From an uncultured Verrucomicrobiae bacterium (GTDB taxonomy: Bacteria > Verrucomicrobiota > Verrucomicrobiia > Opitutales > JABDGR01), in the NCBI GenBank assembly GCA_963765205.1, contig CAVXVB010000005.1, forward strand, positions 512,001 through 576,000: a DNA stretch of 64,000 bases, given 5' to 3'. Numbering within the stretch: the first letter of the stretch is position 1; every line of letters starts with the position of its first letter. A program made the position numbers. Below are positions 40,424 to 43,105 of the stretch, piece by piece.

Positions 40424-43105
40424 AAAGCCGGTTTTACCCGAAGTATGTGCGCCAACCCGCAACGGAGGCAGCATCCTAAGGTAAGGCTGGTGATTGGGAC
40501 GAAGTCGTAACAAGGTAACCGTAGGGGAACCTGCGGTTGGATCACCTCCTTTCTAAGGAGAAGTCCCGTTTCCTTGGGGAACGTTGAACCTCACTGGTTC
40601 AACCAAGCCCCGATGAACTGTAGGGACATACGGTCGAATTCCCCACGCTGCCGGCTCACGCCGGCAAGGTGGGGAACAACGAGATAATCTCTCAATCGCA
40701 CAAATTAAATTTCGGGAACGCACCCCCGCCGCGCGCGCAAGCGCCGCGCCGGGACTCGTTCTTTGAAAGTCTATTCCGAGTACGACCAGCGGCCTGGTCG
40801 GCGAATTAGGATTTAAGATTTATGATTTAGGAAGGTGGACGGTATTGGTGGGCGGTGTCATCCGCGCCGGCGCTGGCCACTTCTTAATTCTTAAATCATC
40901 CTTTTTAATTCCTTATCGGGGCCGTAGCTCAGCTGGAAGAGCATCTGCTTTGCAAGCAGGAGGTCGTCGGTTCGAGTCCGATCGGCTCCACCACTGGAGA
41001 TTTATGAATTATGGTTTACGAAGGAGGATTTGGCGAGGGCGGGGCTTCCGCCCTGGTTTCATAAATCATAAATCCACTTTCATCAATCACCCACCCGGGC
41101 TCATAGCTCAGCTGGTTAGAGCACGCGCTTGATAAGCGCGGGGTCGGTGGTTCAAGTCCACCTGGGCCCACCATTTTTTGGATCAACTCTCGGAATACAC
41201 TTTTTAGACGAAAACACTTTTCGTTCTTTGACAGTTTAATGCATTGTGGGAAAGTCATTGAGTAATCTAGTAGATCAAACCTGACAATACGATTTAATAC
41301 GGCGTTGGTGATCAAATAACATAGGGCAATAAGTGAATGCCTTGGCGATGCCTGGCGACGAAGGACGTGGCAAGCTGCGATAAGCCTCGGGAAGCCGCAA
41401 GCAGGCTTTATTACCCGGGGATGTCCGAATGGGAAAACCCCCCTGGTTGTAGACCAGGGATCGCCGCCTGAATTCATAGGGCGGCGAAGCCAAACCTGCC
41501 GAAGTGAAACATCTCAGTACGCAGAGGAAAAGAAAGCGAATGCGATTCCCTCAGTAGTGGCGAGCGAAAGGGGAACAGCCCAAACCGGCGGGATTTATCC
41601 CGCCGGGGTTGTAGGAGCCCGACGTGGGACCGGAATGGTTAGGAGAAGCTTCTGGAAAGAAGCGCCAAAGCGGGTGATAGCCCCGTATCTGAAAACCGGA
41701 CCGGCCCTAGGGATTTCCTGAGTAGCACGGGACACGTGAAACCCCGTGTGAATCCGCGCCGACCACGGCGCAAGGCTAAATACACGGCATCGACCGATAG
41801 TGCACCAGTACCGCGAGGGAAAGGTGAAAAGTACCCCGTTTAGGGGAGTGAAATAGTACCTGAAACTTATTGCCCGCAAGCGGTCGCAGCCCCCTCGTGG
41901 GGTGACGGCGTACCTTTTGCATAATGGGTCTGGGAGTCAATGTCAGTGGCAAGCTTAAGGGCCGCACGGCCCAGAGGCGCAGCGAAAGCGAGTCCAAATC
42001 GGGCGTCCAGTCGCTGGCATTGCACTCGAAGCGGAGGTGATCTACCCATGGCCAGGATGAAACCCGGGTAACACCGGGTGAAGGTCCGAACTGGTGGCAC
42101 TTGAGAATGCCTCGGATGAGCTGTGGGTAGGAGCGAAAGACTAATCAAACCCCGTAATAGCTAGTTCTCTCCGAAATATATATAGGTATAGCCTCGCACA
42201 TTGCGAAACCGGGGGTAGAGCACTGAAAAGGCTAGGGGCCACACCAGGCTACCAAACCTTATCAAACTCCGAATACCGGTCTAGTCCGTGCGGGAGTCAG
42301 TCGATGGGGGATAAGCTTCATCGGCAAGAGGGGAAGATCCCAGACTACCAGCTAAGGCCCCCAAACAACAGCTCAGTGGTTTAAAGGATGTGGTTTTACA
42401 TAGACAATGGGGATGTTGGCTTAGAGGCAGCCATCATTTAAACAGTGCGTAACAGCTGACCCATCGAGTGAAATCGCGCCGAAAATGATCGGGACTTAAG
42501 CTGTTTGCCGAAGCTGTAGATGTGGCGCAAGCCACGTGGTAGGAGAGCGTTCCAAGCGCGCTGAAGCCGGAACGGCAAGTGACGGTGGAGCGCTTGGAAG
42601 TGAGAATCCAGACATAAGTAACGATAAACGAGGTTGAATTCCTCGTCGCCGTAAGGATAAGGTTTCCCGGGGAAGGTTCGTCCGCCCGGGGTTAGTCGGG
42701 AGCTAAGGCGAGGCCGTAAGGAGTAGCCGATGCACAGCGGGTTAATATTCCCGCACCACGATGTAGACGTTATCAACTCAGGAGTGACGGAGGAGGCTAA
42801 GTGCGGAGAGGTGATGAACTCTCTTCGAAGCCCGTAGGCCGTTCGGCAGGCAAAACCCACCGGACATTAAGGCTGAAAGGTGACCGCAAGCGGAGGCTAC
42901 GGCCGAAGCAAGCGCATTGATGCCAGGCTCCCAGGAAAAGCTTCGGAGTGAGTCTGTATCGTGCCCGTACCGCAAACCGACACAGGTATCCGAGATGAGT
43001 ATTCTCAGGCGCGTGAGTTAACTCTCCTCAAGGAACTCGGCCAGTTAGCCCCGTATCTTCGGTAGAAGGGGTGCCCGCCGCAAGGCGGGTCGCAGTGAAC
43101 CGGCC

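Follow-up and report, generated by a model that had tools for sequence, protein, structure and literature searches.

Translation in this uncultured Verrucomicrobiae bacterium, throughout its order Opitutales and in the sampled sister orders, probably starts at nearly all genes without pairing between the mRNA and the anti-Shine-Dalgarno (anti-SD) sequence, the 16S rRNA sequence being unchanged; start selection would be led by accessibility, with SD sites serving a minority. One more lineage thus joins the known SD-less exceptions, the Bacteroidia and the Verrucomicrobiales. The window on which we report is a stretch of 64,000 nucleotides that includes the rRNA operon, and all start sites, within it and elsewhere, were derived from the sequence.

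Absence of Shine-Dalgarno sites beside a canonical 16S rRNA end

The initial annotation had placed a canonical anti-SD at the end of the 16S rRNA, and the DNA confirmed it. The features of the operon are as follows:

38996..40552, plus strand: 16S rRNA gene (Rfam RF00177, 1456 bits, model 1-1533 complete)
40530..40552: end of helix 45 and 16S 3' tail
40539..40554, plus strand: 16S 3' tail GGATCACCTCCTTTCT, read from the DNA and extending two bases beyond the Rfam end
40545..40549: anti-SD core CCTCC, inside this tail
40918..44621, plus strand: remainder of the operon after the 16S rRNA gene, composed of the next four features
40918..40993, plus strand: tRNA-Ala(TGC)
41097..41173, plus strand: tRNA-Ile(GAT)
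41310..44237, plus strand: 23S rRNA
44507..44621, plus strand: 5S rRNA

The assembly holds one 16S 3' end only. In a phylum-wide sample of 101 genomes, the tail was identical in 39 of 39 16S copies, which came from 30 genomes; the other 71 gave no match in this search, their rRNA being mostly unassembled.

Gene starts were taken from a gene model of our own (3007 genes), which has no term for ribosome-binding sites and chooses the start by coding potential only. Within it, Set A comprises 585 starts fixed by open reading frame structure with the upstream sequence unused, each being the first start codon past an in-frame stop, with the next candidate at least 10 codons away and a coding-like gap. 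An SD 4-mer at -17..-4 was present at 40 of the 585 starts, versus 36 of 585 in a mock window at -60..-47, so that the earlier statement that such 4-mers are no commoner than in control windows holds free of any ribosome-binding-site model. For all 3007 genes the values were 8.1% and 6.2%, and internal in-frame ATG codons, used as a control (n = 14963), displayed a 4-mer upstream in 7.7%. Our energy measure, the share of duplexes at or below -4 kcal/mol in the start region minus that in the mock, is an analogue of the FSD of Naeem et al. 2024 that uses neither the authors' program nor their windows; it lay below mock, Set A giving -0.067 and the full gene set -0.035. Counted genome-wide and free of start calls, GGAGG N5-9 ATG occurs 804 times versus 762 times for GGAGG N20-24 ATG, and no peak in the GGAGG-to-ATG spacing was seen. 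Strongly codon-biased genes revealed no SD enrichment, with the 4-mer at 6.1% in the top codon-bias quartile.

The loss is not total. GGAGG or AGGAG stands at -20..-2 in 92 of the 3007 genes versus 33 in the mock, a net residual signal of about 2%, and the small excess of these motifs at a spacing of 4-10 before any of the first 8 candidate starts (233 versus 198 of 3007) is consistent with that estimate. Extended SDs before open reading frames of at least 40 codons numbered 366 genome-wide, mostly internal or antisense chance matches.

For the survey of relatives we used the ratio of GGAGG-to-ATG spacings, a measure that needs no gene calls. All 111 genomes of the order, covering 40 families, revealed a ratio of about 1.0 (median 0.98, range 0.76-1.27), with pooled counts of 71148 versus 72568 and a z above 3 in 0 of 111; the sister orders of the class gave the same picture (z >3 in 0/14), and in other classes of the phylum the ratio was raised, with z >3, in 32 of 67 genomes. 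The proposal that SD-lessness reaches the Opitutales is thereby confirmed and widened, to 111/111 genomes of the order and 14/14 of its sister orders. The energy measure in these 14 genomes was -0.087, and a genome of the same genus was likewise SD-less with an intact anti-SD. Our positive control, consisting of 19 genomes of other classes, displayed SD sites at 31-35% versus 8-9%, and a G peak of 0.31-0.37 at -11..-8.

A start context that shifts with GC content

Upstream of the Set A starts, C was found at -1 in 391 of 585 (67%) and at -2 in 56%, with CC in 264/585 (45%) and G at -1 in 62/585; across the last 12 bases G amounts to 16%, versus 24% farther upstream. These values match those of the initial annotation, whose description of C-rich -2 and -1 positions after a G-poor stretch therefore stands. 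Internal in-frame ATGs (n = 14963) had C at -1 in 42.8%, G in 39.3% and CC in 11.2%, and intergenic ATGs (n = 16299) had C in 24% and CC in 8%. The peak is positional, as C stays at about 34% at -5..-12; over -30..-1 as a whole, C is 0.30-0.37 and G 0.14-0.24, and A is 0.09-0.21 at -1..-5, showing none of the A enrichment of a Bacteroidia-type context. C at -1 rises with codon bias, from 53% in the lowest quartile through 67% to 79% in the highest, and CC follows by quartile group (0.32, 0.45, 0.58). Genes lying 0-25 nt behind an upstream gene share the context (C at -1 0.64, CC 0.46, SD 8.9% vs 7.7%). TTG starts, some of them possibly miscalled, lack it, with C at -1 in 0.19 (n = 27).

Start regions are also the least foldable stretch of the transcript: the mean folding energy of 40-nt windows rises from about -11 kcal/mol in gene bodies and -7.4 upstream of the start to -4.9 at the start itself. 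Since mononucleotide shuffles reproduce these values, the low foldability comes from base composition; low G continues into the first codons past the start. This folding profile and the first position profile were computed on Set A of an earlier gene model, which admitted antisense shadow ORFs, with coding-like scores required.

Ten starts in the window are fixed by homology to full-length NCBIfam models:

991..1013, plus strand: gcvH start, ...ataattcttCC ATG, no SD; NCBIfam GcvH model 2-125 equals residues 2-125
2180..2202, minus strand: menH start, ...gcgcctttgcG GTG; TIGR03695 position 2 at residue 6
13853..13875, minus strand: rpmA (bL27) start, ...cttcttcccgtC ATG, no SD; TIGR00062 1-72 equals residues 1-72
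14216..14238, minus strand: rplU (bL21) start, ...cgtattccattCC ATG, no SD; NF008916 position 1 is residue 69 of the long ORF, the ATG at 14218
21391..21413, minus strand: start of a NodT-family outer-membrane efflux gene, taccGGAGGaacatCC ATG; TIGR01845 2-460 equals residues 11-471
24269..24291, plus strand: start of a LysR-family regulator, ...ggtatcacCCC ATG, no SD; several NCBIfam models, position 1 at residue 8, the ATG at 24289
29442..29464, plus strand: trpS start, ...ttttccttcttCC ATG, no SD; TIGR00233 position 2 at residue 29, closest upstream start codon the ATG at 29462
44726..44748, plus strand: start of a higA-type antitoxin gene, ...attggcgaCC ATG, no SD; TIGR02607; less firmly fixed, with a TTG 3 codons upstream
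49272..49294, minus strand: pyruvate, phosphate dikinase start, ccctcccttattcctccG ATG, pyrimidine-rich, G at -1, no SD; TIGR01828; picked among close candidates
62813..62835, minus strand: purQ start, ...ccgttccgccgctC ATG, no SD; NF002957 position 1 at residue 7, the ATG at 62815

C stands at -1 in 8 of the 10 and CC precedes 6, and the sole SD belongs to the NodT-family gene, which is operon-internal, about 25 nt past emrB. The menH gene is a counter-example, combining G at -1 with a GTG start. A conservation trial of C at -1, targeting 400 kb of the same-genus genome and eight related bS21 loci (L004-L011), matched 47 of 653 queries and gave just 17 alignments across -20..+10.

Across the order, the base at -1 follows the GC content. 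Members below 45% GC display A in 48%, T in 41%, C in 11% and no G (n = 27), with A over the last 12 bases at 0.41-0.44, and at 58% GC or above C is found in 70% (n = 27); 66 further loci showed the same trend. G at -1 makes up 5% of 111 Set A starts in a sample of 32 families. CC was 0.45 here, 0.52 in the same-genus genome and 0.40 in high-GC Opitutales loci, and in high-GC SD-using relatives it was 0.08-0.17, about three times rarer than here. Pyrimidines are also favoured at -1 and -2 in SD-using classes (pyrimidine at -1 0.61). Because low-GC members use T or A and SD-using classes prefer a pyrimidine as well, C appears to be the shape that an open, G-avoiding start region takes at high GC. 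What stays constant across the order is the avoidance of G, and CC-AUG is not a fixed motif. Of the initial claim that CC-AUG replaces the SD, the CC peak proved real and rises with codon bias, but its place is taken by T or A at low GC.

Surviving Shine-Dalgarno sites and ribosomal proteins

Overlapping stop-start junctions carry an SD (GGAGG) at 27 of 248 (about 11%) versus 87 of 2766 gene ends that no start codon overlaps (Fisher 2e-7), and the GGAG-to-start spacing is the canonical 6-9 nt in 22 of the 27. Subunits of complexes figure among the partners in the 20 annotated pairs (ABC transporters, ExbB-ExbD, ATP synthase alpha-gamma, ActC-ActD), and several of the overlap starts are fixed by Pfam models. 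These sites suggest re-initiation by terminating ribosomes; they show that the anti-SD can pair in some state and are better evidence for its use than the elongation pairing proposed for prfB. The programmed +1 frameshift site of prfB, already described in the initial annotation, was recovered from the sequence: downstream of the ATG at C9:1241057 it reads GGAGG TTT CTT TGA C, with the SD 3 nt upstream of the shift site, frame 0 ends at codon 26, and a full-length RF2 of 381 aa is obtained solely in the +1 reading.

No SD was found in this genome at rpsU (...cctacaccgt ATG), rpsR (...ccctttgcctgcc ATG) or rpsF (...ttttcccc ATG). Among Opitutales loci, 22 of 79 rpsU genes have an SD at or below -10 kcal/mol, versus 19 of 833 other start regions; the same holds for 4 of 32 family representatives of the order. 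As SD-using classes also have the extreme rpsU SD (19/19 and 10/12), it seems to be ancestral and no mark of occlusion.

According to passages of PMC7797042, Tyr54 of bS21 helps hide the anti-SD in Flavobacterium johnsoniae. The Opitutales bS21 has about 65 aa and a short, low-charge tail. At the column of Tyr54, Phe is invariant in the 33 genomes compared, which come from 32 families of the order; a profile of 14 Opitutales sequences aligned gaplessly with 7jil_z, pairing KVAAF with QKAAY. The bS21 tail of the sister orders, which are just as SD-less, is of another kind, and the Phe is absent from both these orders and the SD-using classes. Comparison of the tail with the PDB gave 0 matches for 29 aa and, for 37 aa, no Flavobacterium alignment among the matches listed. 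The bS18 protein has 68 aa, the Flavobacterium chain 7jil_w ranking 24th in its PDB comparison, and bS6 has 99 aa.

As in the Bacteroidia, free ribosomes may keep their anti-SD out of reach, a possibility for which the bS21 Phe is the lead. Against sequestration speak the rpsU, rpsR and rpsF genes of this genome, which are without SD, the bS18, which is short and by rank not Bacteroidota-like, and the SD-less sister orders with their other bS21 tail. A joint reading, which we put forward tentatively and would not call probable, is that the Opitutales came independently to mask the anti-SD much as the Bacteroidia do, with bS21 Phe55 for Tyr54, G-free leaders and state-dependent release. De novo initiation would then select G-free, pyrimidine-ended leaders, CC in the GC-rich members, and a second, C-type variety of Kozak-like context would exist in bacteria. 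Only special ribosome states would free the anti-SD: its release in subunits without bS21 would account for the lone extreme rpsU SD in several lineages, and its release in just-terminated ribosomes for the SDs at overlapping junctions.

Competing explanations and known systems

Under the account that we prefer, initiation without anti-SD pairing at nearly all genes, 30S subunits would load on the open G-poor leader, probably helped by S1, and the start codon would be found by accessibility. The S1 protein of this genome has six S1 domains in one open frame of 601 aa. CC would be the favoured form of a general preference for no G and a pyrimidine at -1/-2, not a separately read motif; in this genome, with 60% GC, the G depletion appears as C, maximal at -2 and -1. 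That the anti-SD persists may be due to a minority of events in which it still serves, as we infer from the overlap junctions, prfB and, in some relatives, rpsU. The initial annotation had instead read CC-AUG as a specific Kozak-like signal, recognised by the ribosome or the initiator tRNA, that took over the role of the SD. The sharp peak at -2 and -1, its climb with codon bias, its retention in operon-internal genes and a CC of 0.40-0.52 in the group versus 0.08-0.17 in high-GC SD users speak for such a signal, and since the rise in C exceeds what openness needs and CC is rarer in those users, direct reading of the two bases is conceivable. We nevertheless consider it unlikely, as low-GC members of the order use T or A (C 4-11% below 45% GC) with the same bS21 tail, 16S tail and initiator tRNA, SD-using classes share the pyrimidine at -1, TTG starts do without the context even if some are miscalled, and the initiator tRNA has an ordinary loop, CUCAUAA with A37. 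Pairing of C at -1 with position 37 was ruled out, the loop being CTCATAA with A37 in 30 of 30 loci; with A37, C at -1 has no extra partner in the initiator tRNA.

The ribosome might also be fully SD-competent with its anti-SD unhidden, SDs having been lost since open, S1-bound leaders suffice, and the bS21 Phe would then be unrelated. The well-spaced SDs at overlap junctions, the one before the operon-internal NodT-family gene, the extreme rpsU SD in 22 of 79 related loci, the bS18 unlike that of the Bacteroidota and the other bS21 tail of the SD-less sister orders all fit this possibility, which we nonetheless regard as doubtful: such a ribosome should enrich SDs in highly expressed genes, yet the top codon-bias quartile stays at 6.1%, the energy measure lies under mock, and Phe55, invariant over 32 families, occupies exactly the position by which the tail is reoriented in F. 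johnsoniae. Mostly leaderless mRNAs, in which the upstream bases would be promoter and not leader, are very unlikely. TANNNT from -12 occurs in 66 of 3007 genes (2.2%) versus about 25 (about 0.8%) at other offsets, and there is a slight TTG excess near -36; the TANNNT excess amounts to some 1-2% of genes, with in-frame TAA/TAG stops as a confounder, no -10-like composition is seen at -12..-7, and the genes 0-25 nt behind a neighbour, which cannot be leaderless, share the context. C-rich, G-poor, unstructured RNA is a hallmark of Rho utilisation sites, and the composition at -30..-1 fits an analogy in which the leaders would chiefly be Rho loading sites, linking failed initiation to transcription termination, and not translation signals; the start-locked sharp rise at -2/-1 and the low G persisting into the first codons indicate the ribosome, making this idea highly improbable. 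A start caller trained on C-rich motifs, such as the one behind the earlier all-gene figures, might have created the signature artificially, but the chance of this is practically negligible: Set A ignores the upstream sequence and agrees with those figures, as do the NCBIfam-fixed starts, Pfam models fix several overlap starts, the GGAGG-to-ATG ratio is independent of gene calls, and antisense shadow ORFs merely dilute the signal (C at -1 0.56 with them, 0.67 without).

Among known systems, the Bacteroidia, in particular F. johnsoniae, initiate without SDs, their anti-SD being sequestered by bS21, bS18 and bS6, as laid out in passages of Jha et al. 2021 (PMC7797042) and Naeem et al. 2024 (PMC10798248). 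Measured against these passages, the present genome likewise retains a canonical anti-SD, has an SD frequency at or under mock, keeps the prfB frameshift site with its SD, and encodes a bS21 of about 65 aa whose low-charge tail is aromatic at the Tyr54 column, with Phe in place of Tyr; rpsU alone with a perfect extended SD recurs in some lineages of the order. The signature given there for F. johnsoniae-type sequestration comprises Phe50, Asn56, Gln58 and Lys/Arg37 of bS18 and Trp100 and Arg103 of bS6. Unlike in F. johnsoniae, as portrayed there, rpsU and rpsR of this genome are without SD, and bS18 has 68 aa instead of 98, with no specific similarity by rank. The start region differs from that of the Bacteroidia in being C-rich and G-poor, not A-rich. 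Baez et al. are said to have described, in 2019, a Kozak-like context of the Bacteroidia that is A-rich with A at -3.

Within the phylum, passages of Naeem et al. 2024 (PMC10798248) describe the Verrucomicrobiales as a third SD-less group, with a negative FSD in 7/7 species; its main text has 0 mentions of the Opitutales, and its Supplemental Table S1 may include values for the order. By its 16S tail and FSD analogue, the Opitutales genome falls into the SD-less group with canonical anti-SD formed by Bacteroidia, Verrucomicrobiales and Cyanobiaceae. With the Verrucomicrobiales, as covered there, it shares the phylum and, by labels, the class, and the FSD analogue is negative here and in the 14 sister-order genomes; bS21 tails differ between the orders. 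S1-dependent initiation on SD-free, pyrimidine-rich leaders is known from the cyanobacterial rbcS type, which the leaders here resemble in being pyrimidine-rich and SD-free, with a predicted six-domain S1; unlike in that type, the feature is genome-wide and tracks GC content. Caulobacter, SD-poor and GC-rich, selects starts by accessibility, with a minority of genes using SDs (passages of doi 10.1101/2022.10.10.510831); here, too, the start codons are found where the transcript has the least structure, but SD enrichment is nil except at overlapping junctions.

A structural account of SD-independent initiation with an intact anti-SD exists for the Bacteroidia only, and the authors of the Verrucomicrobiales report call, in a passage of PMC10798248, for structures from more groups. 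To these groups our survey adds a large clade of diverse GC content, some of whose members are in culture (three Cerasicoccus species were found); the clade forms a natural series whose start context shifts from T/A to CC with GC content, has lineages differing in their retention of the extreme rpsU SD, and offers bS21 Phe55 as a concrete residue for mutation. Gene callers and expression designs for Opitutales should score G-poor, pyrimidine-ended leaders and not count on an SD, which is to be looked for chiefly at overlapping stop-start junctions.

Our literature searches turned up no description of a start context rich in C or pyrimidines for the Verrucomicrobiota. Akkermansia and ‘Verrucomicrobia bacterium IMCC26134’ are listed in print as SD-scarce with a canonical anti-SD, in passages among which start context and an order-wide survey do not figure. 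IMCC26134 is unclassified in the taxonomy consulted. We take it to be a member of the Opitutaceae; if this is right, one member of the order has already been published as SD-scarce.

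SD absence in the host genome and across Opitutales

The sole 16S rRNA gene of the assembly is followed in its operon by the tRNA-Ala, tRNA-Ile, 23S and 5S genes, and its 3' end was located as follows (window positions).

38996-40552, + strand: 16S rRNA gene (Rfam, 1456 bits)
40530-40552, + strand: end of helix 45 and 16S 3' tail, the flagged stretch
40539-40554, + strand: 16S tail GGATCACCTCCTTTCT, extending two bases beyond the Rfam end, with the core CCTCC at 40545-40549

This confirms the canonical anti-SD named in the initial annotation. The tail sequence was invariant in 39 of 39 copies, which came from 30 of the 101 genomes of our phylum-wide sample (5 Opitutales, 8 from sister orders of the same class, 17 from other classes); the other 71 gave no match to the tail, as is usual with metagenome assemblies.

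Since the SD claim is a genome-wide statistic, the whole host genome was analysed (4,022,743 bases in 12 contigs, GC 0.59-0.635), using a gene model of ORFs and codon log-odds in which upstream sequence has no term (3007 genes, coding density 0.79). Set A comprises the 585 starts fixed by ORF structure, each being the first ATG, GTG or TTG past an in-frame stop, with the next candidate start at least 10 codons downstream and the intervening stretch coding-like by score. An SD 4-mer (AGGA, GGAG, GAGG) lay at -17..-4 in 40/585 of them and at -60..-47, our mock window, in 36/585; for all 3007 genes, with starts placed by coding potential alone, the values were 8.1% vs 6.2%. We also computed an energy analogue of the published FSD: from the fraction of start regions whose pairing with the 16S tail reaches -4 kcal/mol or below, the fraction of mock windows doing so is subtracted. 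The result was -0.067 in Set A and -0.035 across all genes. Independently of gene calls, GGAGG N5-9 ATG occurred 804 times and GGAGG N20-24 ATG 762 times in this genome, and the histogram of GGAGG-ATG spacings revealed codon periodicity alone. Our upstream-blind gene model closely reproduced the host-genome numbers of the initial annotation, and its claim that starts lack SDs was borne out.

The ratio of these two spacing counts served as a call-free measure for relatives. Its median was 0.98 in 111 Opitutales genomes from 40 families (range 0.76-1.27, pooled 71148 vs 72568), with z >3 in 0/111; 8 more Opitutales genomes from the phylum-wide sample had a median of 0.94, 14 sister-order genomes from 5 families 0.99 (range 0.89-1.09, z >3 in 0/14), and 67 genomes of other classes 1.19 (maximum 1.95, z >3 in 32/67). 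The ratio is insensitive, as 12 other-class genomes at a ratio of about 1 show SDs at 26-33% vs 9-13%. At gene level, SDs were found at 7.6% vs 6.1% in Set A (n=66) of a same-genus genome (400 kb, 309 genes), which displayed C at -1 in 71% and CC in 52%, and in the 14 sister-order genomes (288 genes) at 17.4% vs 14.6% for all genes and 6.1% vs 12.2% for Set A. Among the other classes, 19 genomes whose ratio was raised (325 genes) had SDs at 35% vs 8.7%, and G peaked there at 0.31-0.37 over -11..-8; the method therefore detects SDs where they are used. SD-lessness is real and lineage-wide, and its proposed extension to Opitutales holds.

Passages of Naeem et al. 2024 (PMC10798248) describe Verrucomicrobiales as the third SD-less group, with FSD negative in 7/7 species, and call for ribosome structures; the string "Opitut" is absent from the main text. 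A 2024 paper in PLoS One counts Akkermansia and "Verrucomicrobia bacterium IMCC26134" among SD-scarce bacteria. In the taxonomy, IMCC26134 is unclassified. We take it to be a member of Opitutaceae. SD-lessness with a canonical anti-SD in Opitutales is a further case beside the published SD-less groups, set apart by three features: its start context follows GC content, some SDs persist at coupling junctions, and bS21 has a Bacteroidia-like residue.

Start-codon context and its dependence on GC content

Set A showed C at -1 in 391/585 starts, CC in 264/585, G at -1 in 62/585 and C at -2 in 56%, while G made up 16% of the last 12 bases vs 24% further upstream; among ATG starts only (n=487), C at -1 amounted to 71% and CC to 49%. 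As controls, internal in-frame ATGs (n=14963) had C in 42.8%, G in 39.3% and CC in 11.2%, out-of-frame ATGs (n=17197) had C in 15%, and intergenic ATGs (n=16299) had C in 24% and CC in 8%. With starts set by coding potential alone, the signal across all 3007 genes was diluted but still there (C at -1 50%, CC 30%). The C-rich, G-poor context described initially is thus upheld. From the lowest to the highest quartile of codon bias, C at -1 ran through 53%, 67% and 79%, and G over the last 12 bases fell from 0.20 to 0.11. This strengthening fits selection for efficient initiation; alternatively, the trend could reflect foreign or miscalled genes within the lowest quartile.

In the window, ten starts were fixable by full-length NCBIfam models; C stood at -1 in 8/10, CC in 6/10, and an SD was present in 1/10, the operon-internal NodT-family gene.

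Base at -1 of the NCBIfam-fixed window starts
C: gcvH, rpmA, rplU, NodT-family gene, LysR regulator, trpS, higA, purQ
G: menH, dikinase gene

Some further features of the window were recorded on the way.

19945-24456, - strand: efflux operon of emrA-emrB-nodT type; its last gene, of nodT type, has the window's only homology-fixed start with an SD
24289, + strand: divergent LysR regulator
26149-26535, - strand: YciH/SUI1 homologue (translation initiation inhibitor, eIF1-related; E-value 1.2e-22, 79.9 bits, below the curated cut-off of 111.65)
44737-45386, + strand: higA-type antitoxin gene, then a small unnamed ORF, directly past the 5S gene

A family-stratified sample of 33 Opitutales genomes from 32 families (29 with at least 8 kb, 473 genes) revealed how the context varies with GC content. 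G at -1 was 5% overall (Set A, n=111); below 45% GC the base at -1 was A in 48%, T in 41% and C in 11% (n=27), and at GC of at least 58% it was C in 70%, with CC in 37% (n=27). The same slide was seen in 66 loci found with bS21 (below 45% GC, T 57% and C 4%; at 58% or more, C 63% and CC 40%). Among relatives whose GC is 56% or higher, those that use SDs show CC in only 8-17%, and G at 0.29-0.33 over the last 12 bases, so CC goes beyond a plain GC effect; pyrimidines are enriched at -1 and -2 in all groups, SD users among them. What the start region avoids is G, and CC-AUG is the form this takes at high GC. Of the proposal that CC-AUG replaces the SD, the excess of CC stood, but not CC as a constant signal, the base at -1 shifting to A or T as GC drops. 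A literature search for a C-rich start context found no paper.

Windows of 40 nt fold least at the start (-4.9 kcal/mol vs -7.4 upstream and about -11 inside genes), and as mononucleotide shuffles fold with the same energies, this openness is due to composition, namely low G. The host genome encodes an S1 protein with six domains. Leaderless transcripts were rejected as the cause: TANNNT starts at -12 in just 2.2% of genes vs about 0.8% at other offsets, and genes lying 0-25 nt behind another have C at -1 in 64% and CC in 46%. SDs occur in this class of genes at 8.9% vs 7.7%.

The initiator tRNA gene of the host lies outside the window (contig C9, complement 1323429-1323503). Bacterial initiator tRNAs usually have three G:C pairs at the base of the anticodon stem, together with A73 and a 1x72 mismatch. 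In 30/30 phylum-sample loci (L164-L193) there were only two such pairs (A29:U41); the 17 of these loci from Opitutales all had a U1:A72 Watson-Crick pair with discriminator C73, and those from other classes a U1xU72 or C1xA72 mismatch and A73. Neither trait follows SD loss exactly.

bS21 and the SD of rpsU

In F. johnsoniae, according to parts of PMC7797042, the 16S 3' tail is held by bS21, bS18 and bS6, and Tyr54 of bS21 stacks on A1534, the point where the tail turns away. The host bS21 has 66 aa and ends in ...KVSAFTNMLRQRYENM. Between a profile of 14 Opitutales bS21 and the F. johnsoniae chain 7jil_z the alignment had no gaps and placed KVAAF opposite QKAAY; another bS21 chain, 9i5v_9 (63 aa), has Y in the Tyr54 column, and with the remaining bacterial bS21 chains the alignment ended near residue 52. 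Phe occupies this column in 33/33 Opitutales genomes from 32 families. The 80 loci found with bS21, all with Phe, are not independent, because the search peptide patterns contained the tail; the named ones are Opitutales in the broad sense, including three Cerasicoccus species (86-89% bS21 identity) and metagenome-assembled genomes labelled Puniceicoccales, Spyradosoma, Merdousia or Oceanipulchritudo. The tail is basic (RRKxARARxR) in the SD-using classes of the phylum and lacks an aromatic residue in the column, and the sister orders, also SD-less, have a different tail, ...KRNKVKWRF..., frequently with an acidic extension. The host bS18 (68 aa) bears no specific likeness to Bacteroidota, and bS6 has 99 aa. 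The Phe is a lead to why the anti-SD may be idle in ordinary initiation; a literature search on bS21 in Verrucomicrobiota found no paper.

Bacteroidetes often retain a strong SD on rpsU or rpsR, as a passage of PMC7797042 states. Unlike these, the host genome has no SD before rpsU (...caccgt), rpsR (...tgcctgcc) or rpsF (...ttttcccc). An extreme extended SD, gaaGGAGGTGAat (-18 to -19 kcal/mol), precedes rpsU in 22/79 related Opitutales loci, where 19/833 other start regions reach -10 and 0 reach -14 (Fisher 1.6e-14), and in 4/32 family representatives. As it is equally extreme in SD-using classes (19/19 and 10/12 genomes), it is ancestral; some SD-less lineages kept it and the host lineage lost it. 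This pattern agrees with a link between bS21 and the anti-SD, without proving occlusion.

Phylum-wide, the rpsU SD reads aaaGGGGGTGAa or gaaGGAGGTGAat at about -16 to -19 kcal/mol (loci L104-L135 in other classes, L056-L081 in Opitutales) and far exceeds the SDs of other genes within the same loci, which hints that a conserved bS21 feedback may be older than SD loss. Genomes of just 0.8-1.1 Mb, at 90-96% estimated completeness, occur in the Opitutales families f3, f7, f19, f36 and f38; representatives of f3, f7 and f19 are among the keepers of the extreme rpsU SD.

Residual SDs at overlapping genes and in prfB

SD absence is incomplete: GGAGG or AGGAG stands at -20..-2 before 92/3007 host starts vs 33/3007 for the mock window (Fisher 9e-8), which leaves roughly 2% of genes as the net excess. 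This excess is concentrated at overlapping stop-start junctions (ATGA and similar), where 27/248 carry the SD motif; of the gene ends that no start overlaps, 87/2766 do (Fisher 2e-7). GGAG and the start codon are 6-9 nt apart in 22/27 junctions (two at 5 nt, five at 6, seven at 7, eight at 8, two at 9, one at 10, two at 11). Pfam annotation covers 20 of the 27.

Examples of SD-bearing overlap pairs (Pfam)
ABC-transporter subunits; ExbB-ExbD; ATP synthase alpha-gamma
NrfD-like and ActD subunits of alternative complex III
Histidine kinase and response regulator; DUF58-BatA
Unnamed gene and DnaE2-like polymerase

Several of the downstream starts are fixed by homology, because the Pfam model begins within the first ten residues. 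Overlap junctions carried SDs at 16% vs 0 in the same-genus genome (n=25), 17% vs 3% in Opitutales loci at 52-58% GC (n=29), 16% vs 0 in those at 58% GC or more (n=19) and 16% vs 3% in the family-stratified sample (n=31). The anti-SD is therefore still able to pair, and the position of these SDs suggests that ribosomes re-initiate there right after terminating; no paper on such junction SDs in SD-less bacteria turned up in a literature search. The prfB frameshift site was as initially described, reading GGAGG TTT CTT TGA C, and only the +1 reading yields the 381-aa RF2.

A HipA-like kinase is split into two overlapping ORFs (contig C7, 240436-241703, - strand; L212), encoding a Couple_hipA N-terminal domain (107 aa) and HipA_C (315 aa), with an ATGA overlap and GGAGG 7 nt upstream. 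The strongest SD-like pairing of the genome, ccGGAGGAGGTGATCggctt ATG at -22.6 kcal/mol, lies outside the window (contig C5, 593022-593195, - strand), before an uncalled ORF of 57 codons.
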